49,661 nucleotides of DNA, from positions 1 through 49,661 of IMG/VR virus record IMGVR_UViG_3300022747_000006. The stretch is one strand, 5' to 3'. Position 1 is the first letter of the stretch. Each line of letters opens with the position of its first letter. The DNA comes from a virus. The notes beneath the pieces are model-generated. The model saw only the letters and a list, made by a program, of their open reading frames with translations, searched no databases and was not told where the DNA came from. Positions 2,250 to 41,461 of the stretch are shown in pieces. Both the position numbers and the translations under genes were made by a program.

Positions 2250-3869
2250 ATGCCATATAGCAAAACTCCAGTAGTTTCTACTTATGACACAAAACGTATT
2301 CACTTCTTGTCGAATCCGTTGCAACGTAGTAGTGACGCAAACCAAGACTTTCGTCTTGTAAATATGATGACTGAGATGGTAGCTTCTGCTCAAACCACTC
2401 GTCAGTACATTAAAAGTCGTCCGGGACTTAACCTGACATTTCAGACTACTGCTGGAGTTAGCAGAGGGTTTTATTATTGGGTGTTTGGCGGTACTGGCTT
2501 TGCCATGTCCGTTGTGGGTAACAAAGTGTACAGCAACAGTACATTGGTACTTACCCTAGCAACATCTACAGGAGATTGTGGATTTACTGAGTTTGTGCAT
2601 TCTGATGCTGCAGACCAACTTATTTTGGTAGACGGTGTTGATGGATATGTTTTCACATCTCCTACAGCTTATACTAAAATCTCTATTGATAATACTGCTA
2701 TATGGACTGGTACACATGCCTATATTTCTAATGATTTGGTTCGTCCTACAACAAGTACAGGATTGATTTATCGTTGCACTGTTGCAGGTACTTCTGGTTC
2801 CACAGAACCTACTTGGCCTACAACAGAAGGAGCCACTGTTACAGATGGTACAGTTACTTGGGTGTCTGAAGCCTTTGCGTTTCCCTCTCCACATGTACCA
2901 GCTCCAATCTTTATGGACGGCTACCTCTTCTTGGCTAAAGCAGGTTCACAAGACGTGTATAATAGCAATCTAGATGATCCATTCAACTGGACTCCTGGAG
3001 ACTTCTTTACTGCTGAAATGTATCCAGATCGCATTGTTACATTGTCCAAGAACAACAACTATTTGTATGCCATTGGAACAAACAGTGTGGAATATCTGTA
3101 TGATGCTGCAAACCCCATTGGAAGTCCGTTAGCTCGACAACAGGGTGCTGTGCAACAGTTTGGTTGTACGGCTGCTGGAACTGCTGTGCAAACCGAGAAG
3201 CAGGTTATCTTTGTAGGTAAAACTGGCAATGGTGGCTACACTGTGTGGACCATTGACGGTTTTAATGCAACAGAGATTGGTATTCCTGCTGTTAAATACT
3301 CTCTCCTTGCAGAAGGTTTGAACTTGGTTAATGCTAATGCTTTCTGTATTCGGGTTGCTGCACAGAAACTTTATGTTTTGTGTTTGTCTTCTCGTACATG
3401 GGTGTACAGCTTTGATACACAGATGTGGAGTGAATGGGATTCTAATAGCAATCCTTTCATTTGTGATTTTGGTAGTGATGGTCCAGGTGGTGAAGCCTAT
3501 TTGCTAGATAAATCATCTGGCAACATTTACATCATGGATGAAACCTTCTTGACAGACAACGGTAGCCCTATTATATGCTCAGTCACTTCTAGTAAACTAG
3601 ACTTTGACAGCATGAATCGAAAGTTTATGTCTCGACTTACCATCATTGGTGATGTTCCTGACAACTCACTGACTTCTGTGAATGTGCAGTGGTCTGATGA
3701 TGACTACAAGACGTGGAGTGCTAATAGAGCACTAAACTTTAATGCTGATTTGCCTTCGTTGTTTCAGCTTGGAACCTTCCGTAGACGCGCATTGAAACTC
3801 ACCTATTCTGCTCCCTACCTTTTCCGTATTGAGGGAATTGAGGTAGATATTAACAAAGGAGCTAGGTAA
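2250..3869 (+). CDS. Putative tail tubular B / nozzle-like protein
   Basis: 539-aa beta-rich ORF between the adaptor-like gene and the internal virion protein genes. Positional inference. Confidence 0.4.
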   Translation: MPYSKTPVVSTYDTKRIHFLSNPLQRSSDANQDFRLVNMMTEMVASAQTTRQYIKSRPGLNLTFQTTAGVSRGFYYWVFGGTGFAMSVVGNKVYSNSTLVLTLATSTGDCGFTEFVHSDAADQLILVDGVDGYVFTSPTAYTKISIDNTAIWTGTHAYISNDLVRPTTSTGLIYRCTVAGTSGSTEPTWPTTEGATVTDGTVTWVSEAFAFPSPHVPAPIFMDGYLFLAKAGSQDVYNSNLDDPFNWTPGDFFTAEMYPDRIVTLSKNNNYLYAIGTNSVEYLYDAANPIGSPLARQQGAVQQFGCTAAGTAVQTEKQVIFVGKTGNGGYTVWTIDGFNATEIGIPAVKYSLLAEGLNLVNANAFCIRVAAQKLYVLCLSSRTWVYSFDTQMWSEWDSNSNPFICDFGSDGPGGEAYLLDKSSGNIYIMDETFLTDNGSPIICSVTSSKLDFDSMNRKFMSRLTIIGDVPDNSLTSVNVQWSDDDYKTWSANRALNFNADLPSLFQLGTFRRRALKLTYSAPYLFRIEGIEVDINKGAR

Positions 3870-16506: not shown

Positions 16507-16682
16507 TGAATGGTGTCCTTTTGATCTTCTGTAACATCTTTAGAAGCAGTGAATGGAATGGCTCCATTCTGAAGCAGGAAATTAAGGCCAATTTTAATGA
16601 CAAAATCCAGTTCTTTCTGCTCAAGTTCGCCTTCAAATTTCACTGTACCGTTTGGAGTTTCAATAGATTTATTTACTAGCAT
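16503..16682 (-). CDS. Small hypothetical protein (59 aa, below the ORF-track cutoff)
   Basis: Peptide MLVNKSIETPNGTVKFEGELEQKELDFVIKIGLNFLLQNGAIPFTASKDVTEDQKDTIQ. It fills an otherwise empty 160-bp gap. The ATG overlaps the HNH gene end and the TGA overlaps the GTG of the phosphoesterase gene (GTGA). Confidence 0.4.
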   Translation of the reverse strand: MLVNKSIETPNGTVKFEGELEQKELDFVIKIGLNFLLQNGAIPFTASKDVTEDQKDTIQ

Positions 16683-17052
16683 ACTTCTTTGCTATTTCCT
16701 TTTCTTTTTTCGTCTTAGTTAGGTGACATGTTTTGCACAATACTTGTAAATTATCTTCAGTGCAGAACAAGCGATTGATATAGTCATCCCAAGATTTAAA
16801 ACCTTTCTTGGGATCAATCACGGGTTTAATGTGATCTACTTCAACATCCTTAGACGTGAATTCTTCCTTACAGCCATTGCATTTGTAATGTTGTGCAATG
16901 CGTCCTGTCTTGACATTCACTTTCTTTTCTGTTTTAGCAGCATTTAATGTCTGATATTTTGGAGGCCAGCGTCTAGAGCCAGCCCGTAATGTAGATACAA
17001 TAAAACTTCTAATACGTCCTTCTGTCCACTGGGTCATGTAGGAAAGTTCCAA
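16669..17052 (-). CDS. HNH endonuclease
   Basis: 127 aa with CNGCKEEF...VEVDHIKPV...NLQVLCKTCHLTKT (CxxC...DH...N...CxxCH). Confidence 0.75.
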   Translation of the reverse strand: MELSYMTQWTEGRIRSFIVSTLRAGSRRWPPKYQTLNAAKTEKKVNVKTGRIAQHYKCNGCKEEFTSKDVEVDHIKPVIDPKKGFKSWDDYINRLFCTEDNLQVLCKTCHLTKTKKEKEIAKKYASK

Positions 17053-18659: not shown

Positions 18660-19361
18660 TCAAGTAAATTTCTTCATTGACTTCATATCAGGCCCAAACT
18701 TTGATTCACAAGCCATTGGAACGCTCCACTTGTACCCAAAGACACTGTAAATACGACTAGGCAAATCCACAAACACTCCGTCAAATATGTTCCGTAAGTC
18801 TCCAAGCCACTTCTCTCTAGTATCGACCACAATACTATCGTGAACAGTAGATATGAAGTCACAAGGAATACCAGCATCTTCAATCCTTTTCTTAGCCATA
18901 ATACGAGCCAACATCATTACATCAGCACCAGTGCCTTGAACTGGGTAGTTTGTAAGAGTTGTCCAAGGAACTTTAAGTTCTCCTCTATAGTCTCGCTTGG
19001 GGGGACAATCCCAACTTCTTCCCATGGGGCCGACGATTGTTTTGCCACCCATAACGGTATCTTTCCATCTTTGATGACAAGAGTCAATGCCCCGATATTT
19101 TGCATAGAATTTTGCATTCATTTCATCCCAGAATTGGCTGCTAGTACTAACGTGCATAAAGTCGGGATCATTGGCGAAAGACCATCCAGAGCCACGATAA
19201 ATGGTACGGAACAGGAAAATCTTTGCAATGAGTCGGCTAGGTAGTCCAAAAGCTTCTTGGTTTTTAGCATGGGTGTCTTCACCTCCTAAAATTTCTTGAA
19301 TACCTACGTTGTCTTTAGCAAGTTCGAGTAGGGTACGCCACTCAAAGCTGCGACGCATCAC
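18660..19361 (-). CDS. DNA polymerase I family, C-terminal fragment (rest of motif A, plus motifs B and C)
   Basis: 233 aa. RRSFEWRTLLELAKD compares with the Pol I segment SQIELRIMAHLSRD. GEDTHAKNQ, RLIAKIFLFRTIYRGS (motif B, R..AK...F...YG) and TVHDSIVVD (motif C, HDE-type). Starts GTG 19361 / ATG 19358. Confidence 0.85.
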   Translation of the reverse strand: MMRRSFEWRTLLELAKDNVGIQEILGGEDTHAKNQEAFGLPSRLIAKIFLFRTIYRGSGWSFANDPDFMHVSTSSQFWDEMNAKFYAKYRGIDSCHQRWKDTVMGGKTIVGPMGRSWDCPPKRDYRGELKVPWTTLTNYPVQGTGADVMMLARIMAKKRIEDAGIPCDFISTVHDSIVVDTREKWLGDLRNIFDGVFVDLPSRIYSVFGYKWSVPMACESKFGPDMKSMKKFT

Positions 19362-19543
19362 ATTGGATTAACATCGCCTACCTCCTTTCGCTTAAGATCT
19401 CCGGCTGCAATTTCTAAAGCTACTTGTGCAGCTACGTGTTTAGCAAAAAGATAGCGATCAAAGACATAGCAAATATTAAATATTTCATCTGGAATGCCTA
19501 CCAAAGACATTGCATAGAGCTCATCAATTTTTTCTTTATTCAT
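19358..19543 (-). CDS. Hypothetical protein (within the polymerase insert)
   Basis: 61-aa ORF. Its stop TGA overlaps the start of the Pol C-fragment. Confidence 0.4.
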   Translation of the reverse strand: MNKEKIDELYAMSLVGIPDEIFNICYVFDRYLFAKHVAAQVALEIAAGDLKRKEVGDVNPM

Positions 19544-19718
19544 TTAAATCATCTACCACAAAAGGAACTGACCGTACATCTGGATATTTTGCAAAAAACT
19601 CTTCTTTGGTAATGTCTTTTCCGATAACAATCTCCTCATATGGAATATTTTTATTCAACAGTTTACTTTTTAGCACCATGCAAGCAGGACAATTGGGTTG
19701 TGAATAAACAGTTTTCAT
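19536..19718 (-). CDS. Glutaredoxin / NrdH-like redoxin (within the polymerase insert)
   Basis: 60 aa. MKTVYSQPNCPACMVLK (CxxC after a beta-strand) and RSVPFVV (cis-Pro loop region) fit a thioredoxin fold. Confidence 0.7.
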   Translation of the reverse strand: MKTVYSQPNCPACMVLKSKLLNKNIPYEEIVIGKDITKEEFFAKYPDVRSVPFVVDDLNE

Positions 19719-19900
19719 TTTCTCAACAATGCTGCAACAGGTTTCTCTGGAAAGCGATTGATTTGTACTTTCATTTCCTGAAACAAATCAGGATAGAATG
19801 ATTGGAAGTCTGCAAGCACTCGTCGTGCTCCATATTGTTGCATAGATGATGCCAAAGTTACCATCACGTCGTTATAGTCCAGAAGTTCTTGTTCATTCAT
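19715..19900 (-). CDS. Hypothetical protein (within the polymerase insert)
   Basis: 61-aa ORF, overlap-coupled on both sides. Confidence 0.4.
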   Translation of the reverse strand: MNEQELLDYNDVMVTLASSMQQYGARRVLADFQSFYPDLFQEMKVQINRFPEKPVAALLRK

Positions 19901-20109
19901 TTATCAATCCTATCATCAAAACAGGCACATCCACGTTCAAGGCATCCTATATCCATCTTTTGTGAAAGATTGACTATACTAGCCTCCCATCCACGTTTAA
20001 AGGCTGTATAGCGCCTATTAGCCAACTCCTGTCCCTCCTCGGTCATTGGAACTTGCCAAGATTCTGCTTCTCTCCATGCAAGGTATATATCCCGTTCTTC
20101 ATCAGTCAT
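19897..20109 (-). CDS. Hypothetical protein (within the polymerase insert)
   Basis: 70-aa ORF. The ATG at 20109 overlaps the end of the Pol N-fragment. Confidence 0.4.
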   Translation of the reverse strand: MTDEERDIYLAWREAESWQVPMTEEGQELANRRYTAFKRGWEASIVNLSQKMDIGCLERGCACFDDRIDK

Positions 20110-21235
20110 AATATTTACTCACAAAAATGTCTTGTAGTTCAGAGGCGAAGTTTTGCAAATTGGGTTTACTACTACTAAGCCTTCCTGTTTGAGCAATGGT
20201 TTGATTGAAGTTGCCATGTAACAAGCCAGGTTCCCAATGCATTTCTTCTCTAAGTTTCACTAGTCCGGTATAATAGGTTCCATTAAGTTTTTCTAGTTTG
20301 GAGAGTTCCAAGATGAGGTCTACAAGAGCACGTTTACCTTTCAGCTTACGTAAGGTAGATTCATCTACTGCATAATTACCTTCCTTAGCCATTTCACTGC
20401 CCTTCAATGGAGTGAACATACGAGGAAGCTTGTGCTCAATAATTATGTTTTTGTACTTGGGCTGCCCGGCTTTCTGTCCAGATTTAAAATACCCGATATG
20501 TTCCTTGCCATCTTCTTTAACTGTTCCGCCATAAAGAAAGGCAGACAAATGGTCATTAGAGGCAAAATTAATAGGAATGTTAGGATAGATAGCTTTGAGT
20601 TTTCCCTTAATCTCTGTGATCTTGTCATCCACCTCCTGTGATCGTTGTTTACAAAGCTGTTCGTCAAATGGAATGCCGTTGCCTTCCATTTCCTGTAGGA
20701 TTTGCAGGTCTTGACACATCAAGTAACAAAGCTTCACTTGGGCAGGAGACATAAGCTTTCGTTGTGCATGGTAACAAGCAAGTGTTAGCTCGGCATCTCT
20801 AGTCGCGTATTCTTCCAGCACATCCCAAGGGATTTCGTCTGTGTTAATTCCTTTATCCCAATACTCTGTTTTAACTACGTCGAGTTTAGGCTCGAAGCCA
20901 TACTTGAGAGCTGTTTCATTTAAGCTAGGCAGTCGATTCGTTTGGTTGGACAGGATGAACTCTGCGATTTGCACATCCCAGATTTGCTTTCGTCGCAAGA
21001 TTGATAGACCGTACTTGAGCAACCAGTGCAAGTCGAACTTGAAGTTGAATCCAATAACCAGTCGAACACCTTGGAGAAGATTTTGCACCAGAACAATGTT
21101 ATCACTATGATGAGCACCACTCCCAATGGTACTAGTAGGGCTAGCATAACTAATGCAAACAAGCTTGTTACGACTGTCATAAGCGTTCCCTTTATTCCAT
21201 GTTGTTGTTTCGGTATCGAGGGCTAAGACATTCAT
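20102..21235 (-). CDS. DNA polymerase I family, N-terminal fragment (3'-5' exonuclease plus the polymerase domain up to motif A)
   Basis: 377 aa with Exo I LALDTETT and TGRLSSSKPNLQNF (Pol I: TGRLSSTDPNLQNIP). It ends ...ELQDIFVSKYYD followed by TGA TGA. Confidence 0.85.
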   Translation of the reverse strand: MNVLALDTETTTWNKGNAYDSRNKLVCISYASPTSTIGSGAHHSDNIVLVQNLLQGVRLVIGFNFKFDLHWLLKYGLSILRRKQIWDVQIAEFILSNQTNRLPSLNETALKYGFEPKLDVVKTEYWDKGINTDEIPWDVLEEYATRDAELTLACYHAQRKLMSPAQVKLCYLMCQDLQILQEMEGNGIPFDEQLCKQRSQEVDDKITEIKGKLKAIYPNIPINFASNDHLSAFLYGGTVKEDGKEHIGYFKSGQKAGQPKYKNIIIEHKLPRMFTPLKGSEMAKEGNYAVDESTLRKLKGKRALVDLILELSKLEKLNGTYYTGLVKLREEMHWEPGLLHGNFNQTIAQTGRLSSSKPNLQNFASELQDIFVSKYYD

Positions 21236-21377: not shown

Positions 21378-21603
21378 AATAGGTTGACATATGTACCTCA
21401 AAAGAAACATCATCCTTAGTAAATCCCTTGTCTACAAATTCTTGCATACAAGCATCACGAAAATCTTCTGCTCCTTCTAAGAAGGGAAATACTCCTACAG
21501 CAGTGGCAGAAGGATAACGCATAACAATGTAACAATTGGCTCGATGTTTTGGGAATCGCATTTTTACAAAAGGCCTTTCATTAAATATCTTCGTAGCGGG
21601 CAA
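21367..21603 (-). CDS. Hypothetical protein
   Basis: 78-aa ORF overlapping the helicase 3' end by 23 nt. Confidence 0.4.
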   Translation of the reverse strand: MPATKIFNERPFVKMRFPKHRANCYIVMRYPSATAVGVFPFLEGAEDFRDACMQEFVDKGFTKDDVSFEVHMSTYYDA

Positions 21604-22166
21604 TGCCCGGATTGATCAACACTTCACGCTTGCCATGGCGCTGGTCAGGAATGGTGTCTTCATCGCCAATAAGTTTATTCTTACTTGCATGGAGATAACG
21701 AACATTCTCATAACCGGCATCAGGAATCTTACCAATACCTACAATCCAATCTGCTTCTGCCTGTTTAGCTGTCTTGGCATTAGCAACGTGTCCCATGTTG
21801 AGCCACTTCTGGCCCTCACCGGTTCCGTCTGCTTGACACACAGCAATTACAGGACAGTATTCTTTGGCAAGTTCCCGTCCCCATTGATACATTGCACCAA
21901 GACGCAAGTCTTCACGGTCATTACTGAAGCCGTGTACCTTATCAATCTGGTCAAAGATAATTAGAGAGGGCTTGTACTGCTTACATACTTGCTCAACGGT
22001 GGACTTAGTGATAACCCCACTGTCAAAGATTTTATGCTTACCCTTAGTCTTCTCCATGAACTTAGTTCGATTGCCTTTAAGGTCGGCAAACAGCTGTGTC
22101 ATGTTCAGTCCAAGAGAGGCTTGATAACAACGGAGTTTTACTTTGTTACCTTGTTCTTCGTTATTA
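21581..22166 (-). CDS. Replicative (T7 gp4 / DnaB-like) helicase, exon 2
   Basis: The frame is open from 22166, upstream of the first ATG (22102), and reads (F)NNEEQGNKVKLRCYQASLGLNMTQLF...IIFDQIDKV (Walker B-like)...VIAVCQADGTGE...RYLHASKNK. The NNEE segment corresponds to the T7 gp4 segment LAMLEES that follows Walker A. Confidence 0.7.
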
Positions 22167-22899
22167 CTTGATGTTCGGAGTAGTTCGTTAAGCTACTCCC
22201 GGCTATGCCAGCTACATGTTCCCATGTAGAACAGACTATATCATCGTCCTTAGGACGTTCCGCACTTCCACTCACTTGAGTGTACGCCTTTCGGCTAGTC
22301 GTTACACCTTTATACATAACTATACAATTGCCCGTTCCAAATTTTTCCAATAACAGATCGAGTAACACCAAATTGATCAGCAACTTTTTGTTGCGTTTCC
22401 TCAGTGATTGTCTTAATCTGCTTAACCTGTTCAATAGTCAGTTTATTTTTAAACAGTCCGGTTTCATGAGCATGTCTAGTATTTTCTGACTTAGTTACCC
22501 ACTCTAGATTGGAGAGTAGATTGCAGGACTTGTCGCCATTTTTATGATTGACATCTAGATTAGGGGCATGTGCTGGAGCAAAGGTAGACAATACTACCCG
22601 ATGAACTAAGCACAGTCTTCCTTGCGGACGTTTCTCATTAAACAGTTTGACTACTTTGTATCCCTTTCCATTATCCACGGCAGAAAGTATTTTACCCTTC
22701 TTGTCGCTGCGAATAAGGCCATTAGGATTCACAGAGTAGTTTGGATAATCTGGAATTATTTTAAAATTACCGGCCATGTTGGGCCTCCTATATTGTGGTA
22801 GGTTGTTATGTATACTTGGCTCGGGATTACCTGTTCTAGGCTTCCCCCGAATTCACGGAATTTTCAAATAAGATTGCTCTTATAGGGGTCTATTAGTTA
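22167..22899 (-). mobile_element. Putative group I intron (733 nt) carrying an HNH homing endonuclease ORF
   Basis: The 5' exon ends in U (22900), which can wobble-pair with G22890 in a GGUU:GACC P1-like helix. The intron ends in G (22167). Joining the exons restores ...GPIIWF|NNEEQG... in frame (536+586 nt, 374 codons). The non-ORF parts are densely hairpinned (GCCgaaaGGC, CGTCCtaaGGACG, CTACATGggaaCATGTAG, GGAGTAGcttaacgaaCTACTCC). Confidence 0.6.
22310..22777 (-). CDS. HNH homing endonuclease (NUMOD4-like N-terminus, HNH, C-terminal HTH; I-HmuI-like architecture)
   Basis: 155 aa with YPNYSVNPNGLIRS (NUMOD4-like), VHRVVLSTF...VNHKNGDKSCNLLSNLEWVTKSENTRH (HNH) and QQKVADQFGVTRSVIGKIWNG (HTH). 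Confidence 0.85.
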   Translation of the reverse strand: MAGNFKIIPDYPNYSVNPNGLIRSDKKGKILSAVDNGKGYKVVKLFNEKRPQGRLCLVHRVVLSTFAPAHAPNLDVNHKNGDKSCNLLSNLEWVTKSENTRHAHETGLFKNKLTIEQVKQIKTITEETQQKVADQFGVTRSVIGKIWNGQLYSYV

Positions 22900-23435
22900 A
22901 ACCAGATGATGGGCCCGCTGTCAGGACTAAGTTGTTCAGCCATGAAAGTTGTTTCTGAAGCGAGGAATGTTGTTTTGCCCGTTTCGGGTCGAGCGAATAT
23001 AAATCCGAAATCGCCTTTGCGTAGGCTACCCAACATTTGATTAAGTGTTGATAAGCGCCATCTAAGTCCTTGTTGTTTGACTGCACTATCTGCAAGCTCC
23101 TCTAGATCGTCTGAAATGAACTCAAACTTTTCTTCCTTAGCAGCAACTTCCTGTGTCTTAAGGAAACCACTGAGCATATCACTCATCTTAGCAATCTCAA
23201 GCTTACCCTGAGTTACGTCATATGCTGCAAGAGAAATTTCTTTGAGTTGTTTGTTAGACAGGATGGAATTGATAAGGGTGTAGGTTGTTTCTGGTGAAAC
23301 TTCCAAGTCCTTAAGATTTTCAATCACACCAAGATAATAATCCTTGTCCTTATTGGACAAAGCAAACAACAAGTTAGCTAAGTCATGTACAGAAAGATTA
23401 TGTTGTTCTTCATTTTGAAGATGGTAGTTATTCAA
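22900..23435 (-). CDS. Replicative (T7 gp4 / DnaB-like) helicase, exon 1
   Basis: Walker A GFIFARPETGKTTF. If unspliced, the frame stops right after ...GPIIWFN. The listed TTG start (23435) has no RBS; see the finding on an upstream ATT at 23552. Confidence 0.7.
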
Positions 23436-23588
23436 TACAGAATAAACAGGCTGTACTTCTTTTGTTAAATCAGTAACAGTAAGTTTATCTTTGAATGTAT
23501 TCCAAATACTATATGTAAGGAATAGTTTGATAATAGATATTTCTGGATTAATAGTATACTCCTTGTAAAGTTATCTCCTTATATTATT

Positions 23589-23618
23589 ATTGTACCATAC
23601 ACATCTCCTGTTTGTCAA
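23589..23618 (-). promoter_or_regulatory. Sigma70-like promoter upstream of the helicase gene
   Basis: Minus strand reads TTGACA (23618..23613), an 18-nt spacer, then TACAAT (23594..23589), in a 190-bp AT-rich gap. Confidence 0.5.
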
Positions 23619-41131: not shown

Positions 41132-41451
41132 TTATTCCAACACTCCATCGAATTCTTGTCAAGGCAGACAAGCTCGAAGAAGTAGATAAAACCCATGTTA
41201 AGGCCCGTCAGCTCGGTTTGGTAATTCCAGACAGTGATGACAACAAACGAGCCCAAGCGGGGGTAGACAGAGGCACTGTGGTGTCAGTCGGTCCAACCGC
41301 ATTCCGTGATTTCAATGCTGAAAGCCCAATTAAAGTAGGCGACTATATTGCATATGCACGATTTGCTGGTAAGATGCTTACTGATCCTGCAACTGAAGAA
41401 GACTTCGTTATCCTAAACGACGAAGACATTGTCTGTATTTTTAAAGACTAA
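41128..41451 (+). CDS. GroES/Cpn10-like co-chaperonin
   Basis: 107 aa. IIPTLHRILVKADKLEE...GLVIPDS...RGTVVSVGP...IKVGDYIAY...FVILNDEDIVCI aligns by eye with GroES IRPLHDRVIVKRKEVE...GIVLTGS...RGEVLAVGN...VKVGDIVIF...VLIMSESDILAI. Confidence 0.6.
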   Translation: MIIPTLHRILVKADKLEEVDKTHVKARQLGLVIPDSDDNKRAQAGVDRGTVVSVGPTAFRDFNAESPIKVGDYIAYARFAGKMLTDPATEEDFVILNDEDIVCIFKD

Positions 41452-41461
41452 GGAGGCCTAG

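Follow-up and report, generated by a model that had tools for sequence, protein, structure and literature searches.

An interrupted helicase gene lies on the minus strand of the genome of an uncultured phage, the IMG/VR virus record IMGVR_UViG_3300022747_000006, positions 1 to 49,661 of which were analysed here as one stretch of 49,661 nt (the window). Three open reading frames (ORFs) follow one another at 23435..22893, 22777..22310 and 22102..21581. The first carries a Walker A motif (FARPETGKTTF), has ...GPIIWFN as its C-terminal end and is closed by two in-frame stop codons, TAA at 22895..22893 and TAG at 22892..22890, while the frame of the third is open for 21 codons (NNEEQGNKVKLRCYQASLGLN) 5' of its first ATG at 22102. 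A preliminary description, made from the DNA letters alone, had read the outer ORFs as the two parts of a replicative helicase, the upstream one stopping after ...GPIIWFN and the downstream one open for about 20 codons before its ATG, and the sequence between them as a group I intron with an HNH homing endonuclease. We find this arrangement as described, and conclude that the 733-nt insert is very probably a mobile group I intron of the phage IA (IA2-like) kind in a gene of the DnaB family of replicative helicases. The coordinates are collected in the table.

The helicase gene and its junction

Removal of 733 nt (22899..22167) joins the two helicase frames, giving 536 + 586 = 1122 nt when counted from the TTG at 23435, as had been calculated before. 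The same mRNA results from four neighbouring cut positions, and only the pair U22900/G22167 combines an exon-final U with an insert-final G. The predicted ligated mRNA, without the 733 nt, reads ...ATCATCTGGTT-TAATAACGAAGAACAAGG... at the junction (in amino acid, exon and mRNA sequences a hyphen marks the point of insertion). Searched with its N-terminal extension, the joined helicase has 4325 protein matches at E <= 0.001, the best of which are 83-85% identical and typically 412 aa long. Pfam finds AAA_25 and DnaB_C only, the same domains as in the best relatives. An alignment of 14 sequences across the junction, ...GPI(I/L)W(F/I/L)-NNEEQ..., contains no insertion or deletion and NNEEQ is invariant in it; the joined protein, reading IIWF-NNEEQ, is colinear with hundreds of uninterrupted homologues. 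No interruption occurs in any of the 80 related helicase loci from IMG/VR, nor is there one in the closest relatives in the protein database. While phmmer found no match of the joined helicase in the Protein Data Bank (PDB), so that a family profile was needed, this profile matches the bacterial DnaB structures 2vye and 6bbm (E about 1e-4) and aligns NNEE to their SLEM (H1a) motif, which places the insert directly before a motif of the catalytic site. The preliminary description had likened the segment after the junction to LAMLEES in T7 gp4-type helicases. Among cultured phages the helicase comes closest to those of Alcaligenes phage QDWS535 (52%) and of the Methylophilales phages MEP401/402 (about 45%). 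In the annotation of the ENA contig ERZ27251980:k141_1437 (49,675 bp), which is the window, the helicase stands as two ORFs, neither with a Pfam match.

The start of the helicase is most likely not the TTG at 23435, which is the start given by the mechanical ORF call and from which the preliminary description derived a mature protein of 373 aa. The frame is open from the stop at 23573..23571, the homologues begin exactly at the column of an ATT at 23552..23550, and an AAGGAG at 23564..23559 sits 6 nt upstream of this codon. In the window and 21 intron-less relatives (starts of L001-L040) the aligned start codon is ATT nine times, ATG six times, TTG three times, ATA twice and GTG and CTG once each, so that 11 of the 22 are ATT or ATA; AAGGAG usually precedes the position. 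The start column of the homologues and this survey of start codons point to a mature helicase of 412 aa from ATT 23552 rather than 373 aa. The recurrent non-canonical start looks as if it is missed by gene callers, which place it at TTG 23435 or too far upstream (P0004). Just upstream of the gene lies a strong sigma-70-like promoter, predicted from its consensus match.

Fold of the insert and its place among phage introns

The helices P1 to P9.2 were assigned by hand, as the preliminary description had proposed, and a full model could be built. The core pairing of P1, GGUU(22903..22900):GACC(22890..22887), is present with the U-G wobble at the cut and the intron ends in G, both as first noted; the five perfect hairpins then listed are P7.1, P8, P9, P9.2 and P2. 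In-frame UAA/UAG lie at 22895..22890. Every modelled helix of the 5' half (21 pairs) forms in the window. In P7 the pair G22300-C22234 is the predicted guanosine-binding site. Unconstrained folding of the intron with a GAAA loop in place of the ORF gives -84.4 kcal/mol, compared with -62.5 ± 4.4 for 200 shuffled sequences (z = -4.97; 0/200 as good), and this fold recovers P1, P2, P3, P4, P5, P6/P6a, P7.1, P7.2, P8, P9, P9.1 and P9.2, the P7 pseudoknot being excepted.

Table. Predicted features of the helicase locus, in window coordinates (paired percentages and compensatory counts are from the relatives aligned to the window-derived models)
Feature	Position	Strand	Details
Sigma-70-like promoter TTGACA-18-TACAAT with extended -10 TG	23589..23618	-	11/12 consensus positions
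Helicase exon 1	22900..23552	-	Walker A ARPETGKTT; 3' end ...IIW UU
Helicase exon 2	21581..22166	-	begins U AAU AAC GAA GAA (NNEEQ, H1a motif); stop 21583..21581
Probable group I intron, 733 nt	22167..22899	-	5' splice site after U22900; 3' after G22167
P1 hairpin	22887..22903	-	GGUU-UA 22903..22898 : UAGACC 22892..22887; U22900·G22890 at splice site
P2 hairpin AUAAGAgcaaUCUUAU	22868..22883	-	98.1% cells paired; 6/6 pairs changed on both sides
P3	UUCCG 22860..22856 : CGGAA 22262..22258	-	absent from both half-models, still covaries
P4	22850..22846 : 22825..22821	-	encloses P5; 99.5% paired, 5/5 pairs compensatory
P5	22841..22829	-	82.5% paired
P6	GCC 22820..22818 : GGU 22308..22306	-	G·U / C-G / C-G conserved or covarying
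P6a	UAUACAUAAC 22814..22805 : GUUAUGUAUA 22320..22311	-	perfect 10-bp stem; loops out ORF
Putative homing endonuclease gene, 155 aa	22310..22777	-	in P6a loop; Pfam and PDB matches
P7	GACUA 22300..22296 : UAGUC 22238..22234	-	part of 3' catalytic core 22234..22300
P7.1 (GCCgaaaGGC)	22295..22286	-	covaries, 97.0% paired
P7.2	22282..22269	-	covaries, 99.7% paired
P8 (CGUCCuaaGGACG)	22257..22245	-	covaries
P9 (CUACAUGggaaCAUGUAG)	22229..22212	-	99.8% paired
P9.1	22210..22200	-	86.7% paired
P9.2 (GGAGUAG...CUACUCC)	22199..22177	-	97.2% paired
Intron 3' tail GAACAUCAAG and terminal G22167	within 22167..22229	-	tail motif GAACAxxAAG conserved

A covariance-model scan, also a check that had been suggested, finds a group I signal exactly at both non-coding flanks of the ORF. 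With permissive filters the Rfam family RF00028 matches 22909..22628 (29.7 bits, E 2e-5; P1-P6) and 22379..22212 (28.4 bits, E 5e-5; P7-P9), the two half-matches being collinear, one on each side of the ORF, and the permissive scan of 24 kb gave nothing else of relevance. A 24-nt core pattern found a single IMG/VR contig, L081 (IMGVR_UViG_3300036832_000073), and two shorter patterns found more than 119 loci each. The ORF-less relative in L081 (2462..2726, 265 nt) scores 74.1 bits with RF00028, above the threshold of 50, is identical to the window intron in the sequence of P7/J8-7/P9 and differs from it by compensatory changes in P2, P3, P4, P7.1, P7.2, P8, P9.1 and P9.2. It is the closest ORF-less relative found and lies, unlike the window intron with its helicase, in a tail-sheath-like gene (..NIKVPL-YWVEVDPS..) of a high-GC phage. 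Pairwise MAFFT alignments of the halves from the window and L081 were dropped as seeds, P7.1, P8 and P9.2 being mis-registered in them.

Two single-sequence covariance models, R1 for the 3' half and R2 for the 5' half, were instead built from the fold of the window and searched against the window and 99 loci. R1 gave 95 matches (84 distinct rows) with 97.2% of cells paired and compensatory changes in 33 of 36 pairs, and R2 gave 50 matches (43 distinct rows) with 94.3% of cells paired and compensatory changes in 19 of 21 pairs, compared with 34-45% and 34-47%, respectively, in controls with slid partners; these paired percentages are somewhat inflated, the alignments having been fitted to a structure derived from the window. 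Each helix has the support of covariation. The G-C pair in P7 is invariant in 77/77 relatives, and 38 of 43 distinct relatives retain U·G at the splice site. Two checks are free of the bias. P3 and P6, which are modelled in neither half, pair in 237/280 cells when half-matches from the same locus are combined, with CG, UA, GC and AU all occurring at single positions. The model R3, made from 34 other introns with the window excluded, matches the window at 22320..22165 with 160 bits (E 1.9e-43), where 36/36 of the modelled 3'-half pairs are standard. A further R3 match at 41399..41454 (8.3 bits, E 0.72) is a chance hit, and no other was found in the 49.6 kb.

About half of the relatives with both halves are ORF-less and the rest carry an insert of 386-800 nt at the P6a position at which the window has its 484 nt. 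Megablast of the region against cultured phages gave no match; the 3' half is 72-78% identical over >90% of its length to sequences in 638 cultured-phage records, among them Escherichia, Staphylococcus, Pseudomonas, Yersinia and Bacillus phages. DNA polymerase genes beside HNH endonucleases are the commonest annotation in the best of these matches; many are unannotated, and some are labelled Intron_gpI or 'HNH endonuclease inducing intron mobility'. Between P7 and the 3' strand of P3 the intron has P7.1 and P7.2, a feature of subgroup IA (IA2-like). The comparison shows likeness to such phage introns, for which IA2 is the probable label. At several IMG/VR loci, L156 (730..1581), L126, L114, L110, L098, L087, L107, L089, L084 and L127, the 3'-half model matches two or three times within a few kb, pointing to more than one intron of this family per gene or gene cluster.

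The fold bears directly on the possibility that the helicase is truly split, with two polypeptides that assemble non-covalently, a free-standing HNH gene between them and no RNA splicing. Gene callers do give two ORFs, of 180 and 173 aa, and the DNA polymerase of the same phage is really split into two genes without an intron signal. Such an arrangement would, however, leave the invariant NNEEQ..RC.QA in the 21 open codons before the ATG untranslated, and no ribosome-binding site lies upstream of 22102. It would also give no account of non-coding flanks that make up a complete, covarying group I core, nor of a breakpoint that agrees to the nucleotide with the P1 U·G and the terminal G. We consider two separate polypeptides very unlikely.

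The polymerase in question belongs to family A and occupies 21235..20102 and 19361..18660 (minus strand; within 18660..21235). Four small ORFs lie between its halves, one of them glutaredoxin-like (19718..19536, CPAC motif). A second intron at this place was rejected on account of the lack of a group I signal and the four separate small ORFs. The split arrangement is shared with MEP401/402 (PMC10580990).

The endonuclease and the distribution of the intron

The 155-aa ORF in the loop of P6a is, on the evidence of its sequence matches, an I-HmuI-like HNH/NUMOD4 homing endonuclease, in line with its first reading as NUMOD4-like/HNH. Pfam detects HNH_3 (E 9e-11, 41.7 bits, cut-off 24.8) and, N-terminally, NUMOD4 (E 1e-5, 25.8 bits, cut-off 23.4). 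Its sole match in the PDB is I-HmuI (1u3e, E 1.1e-10), and the motif residues His and Asn align (vnHkngdkscNllsNlewvt in the ORF, vdHkdgnkdnNlstNlrwvt in 1u3e). I-HmuI is the nicking endonuclease of the SPO1 DNA-polymerase intron. Some relatives of the window enzyme carry PF13936. A Shine-Dalgarno sequence, AGGAGG at 22789..22784, stands 6 nt before the ATG, and the last codons and the stop fall within the 3' strand of P6a; competition between translation of the ORF and the folding of P6a is therefore expected. Elsewhere in the window, a 127-aa ORF at 16669..17052 (minus strand) has an HNH-like signature (..VEVDHIKPV...LQVLCKTCHLTKT..), which may mark a free-standing HNH endonuclease.

Within IMG/VR nothing is more than 44% identical to the 155-aa endonuclease, and the orthologues at the same site came from a large protein database. 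Relatives at 52-82% identity occur in many metagenomic contigs, and in the four of them whose context was examined, 4/4 lie in a helicase gene at the same insertion position (WF-N or WV-N). The flanking intron halves of three were scored with R1 and R2. In L398/L399 the helicase is 54-66% identical to that of the window, the junction is ...ILWF-NNEEQ and the halves score 159 and 105 bits; in L400/L401 (helicase 42-54% identical, same WF-N site) they score 109 and 67 bits; and in L402 (40-57% identical, ...GVWV-NNEEQ) they score 123 and 56 bits in an intron without P2. The fourth, L404, has a helicase 41% identical to that of the window and the junction ...EWF-. In the context of L405, whose endonuclease is only 39% identical, there was no helicase match. 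Where the window has GGUU at the exon end and GACC as guide, L402 has GGGU and GCCC, so that exon and intron have changed in a compensatory way. The L402 intron (2385..3123) lies on a 50-kb contig binned as Methanosarcina (GCA_035707045), which has the look of a phage genome wrongly assigned to an archaeal metagenome-assembled genome.

In the intron-less relatives the target is strongly conserved as DNA, reading TGG TTY AAY AAY GAR GAR CAR GG in the 52 loci where the site was located (for example GGACCTATTCTTTGGTTCAACAACGAAGAGCAAGG in L001). Distant helicases carry the intron while the nearest ones lack it, which is the classic pattern of homing, and on this distribution active movement among related uncultured phages seems likely.

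The same orthologues speak to a further possibility, that of a decayed intron that no longer splices. The helicase would then be a pseudogene, and the genome perhaps defective or its helicase function supplied by the host or a helper. The contiguous Rfam score below threshold and the weak P10 could be taken in this sense. A decayed element would not be expected to retain 36/36 standard 3'-half pairs in the R3 match together with the 21 pairs of the 5' half, nor the G-binding pair, the U·G and the terminal G beside two intact exons and an intact endonuclease ORF; moreover, compensatory changes preserve the fold in the same-site orthologues of four other lineages, which implies selection for splicing. 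We therefore give decay as little credence as a true split. A 'fractured gene', in which split-intein halves are spliced in trans at the protein level with an endonuclease gene between them, is an arrangement known from environmental replication genes with a free-standing endonuclease gene between the halves, according to PMC2677866, but here the exon 1 ORF ends one codon past the junction and exon 2 begins at it, leaving no room, the joined protein aligns with intact homologues without a surplus residue, and Pfam finds AAA_25 and DnaB_C and no Hint domain, so that the colinearity of the joined protein rules this arrangement out for practical purposes.

Proposed splicing and homing, and comparison with known phage introns

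Our preferred explanation remains a mobile group I intron in the helicase gene, and each computational check that the preliminary description had proposed (covariance models, a manual fold, alignment with intact homologues, in which the WFNNEE junction has no indel) supports it. Several points weigh against it. Over the whole window Rfam at its gathering thresholds gives no match, the contiguous intron scoring below the curated threshold of RF00028 (50 bits), since the match is divided by the ORF insert of 484 nt. By eye P10 has about 2 bp, which is weak, and the C-terminal helix-turn-helix region of the endonuclease has a weak match to DUF7769 only, below cut-off (E 0.0039). To these come the inflation of the paired percentages mentioned above and the fact that guanosine-dependent self-splicing and cleavage by the endonuclease are activities that we infer from sequence.

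The proposed course of events is as follows. The helicase gene would be transcribed as a single pre-mRNA, on which ribosomes translating exon 1 would halt at the UAA/UAG in the P1 loop. In the folded intron the internal guide UAGACC would pair with the exon end GGUU-UA as P1, with the U·G wobble at the cut; the P7 G-C pair would bind a free guanosine for attack after U22900, whereupon the terminal G22167 would take its place at P7 and the exons would be ligated. Ligation would restore ...PIIWF-NNEEQG... (H1a motif) and give the 412-aa helicase. The I-HmuI-like HNH enzyme would be made from the gene in the P6a loop by way of its own ribosome-binding site and, in a mixed infection, would nick or cut intron-less helicase alleles at TGG TTY AAY AAY GAR GAR CAR; repair templated by the intron-bearing copy would then spread the intron.

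The element could be more than a neutral parasite. The endonuclease might serve as a weapon against intron-less co-infecting phages, whose helicase would be cut at H1a, and splicing and the weak ATT start might act as two post-transcriptional throttles on helicase dosage. Both ideas, which we put forward as speculation and think rather improbable, would fit the sporadic same-site distribution in helicases that are 40-66% identical.

Selfish elements of this kind are well known, and what is new here is the host gene and the lineage; existing knowledge of how such elements act is left unchanged by the window intron. Its recognition has a practical value for annotation, since gene callers split an essential helicase into two domain-less ORFs, as they do in at least four other metagenomic phage lineages, and recognizing the intron restores a complete replication module. 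The range of the very widespread family of phage IA2 introns is extended to the H1a site of a DnaB-type helicase and to the lineage of uncultured relatives of MEP401 and Alcaligenes QDWS535. In addition, the orthologous introns, with or without P2 and with co-varying exon and guide, form a series that can be used in studies of homing-site recognition.

The nearest parallels are the phage introns of the IA2 type with HNH endonucleases in DNA polymerase genes, for example those of SPO1 with I-HmuI, of Bastille with I-BasI and of Xanthomonas phage phiL7. T7-like and G7C-like phages matched by the 3' half from the window include Xanthomonas phages DES1 and Valrath, Escherichia phages PhAPEC5/7 and Erwinia phage phiEa1H. 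The phage polymerase introns share with that of the window the RNA family, P7.1/P7.2, an endonuclease of the I-HmuI type and a highly conserved motif of a replication gene as the site, whereas the host gene here is a DnaB-type helicase instead of a DNA polymerase and the host phage is uncultured. The td intron of T4 is likewise a phage group I intron with an endonuclease ORF looped out from P6 and in-frame stops soon after the 5' splice site; unlike the window intron, it encodes a GIY-YIG enzyme, I-TevI, in place of an HNH enzyme and interrupts the thymidylate synthase gene. Phage helicase genes with group I introns are already on record, helicase-gene introns having been reported in the Staphylococcus myoviruses K, G1, Romulus and Remus (PMC5526547); these are group I interruptions like that of the window, and their hosts are Gram-positive myoviruses.

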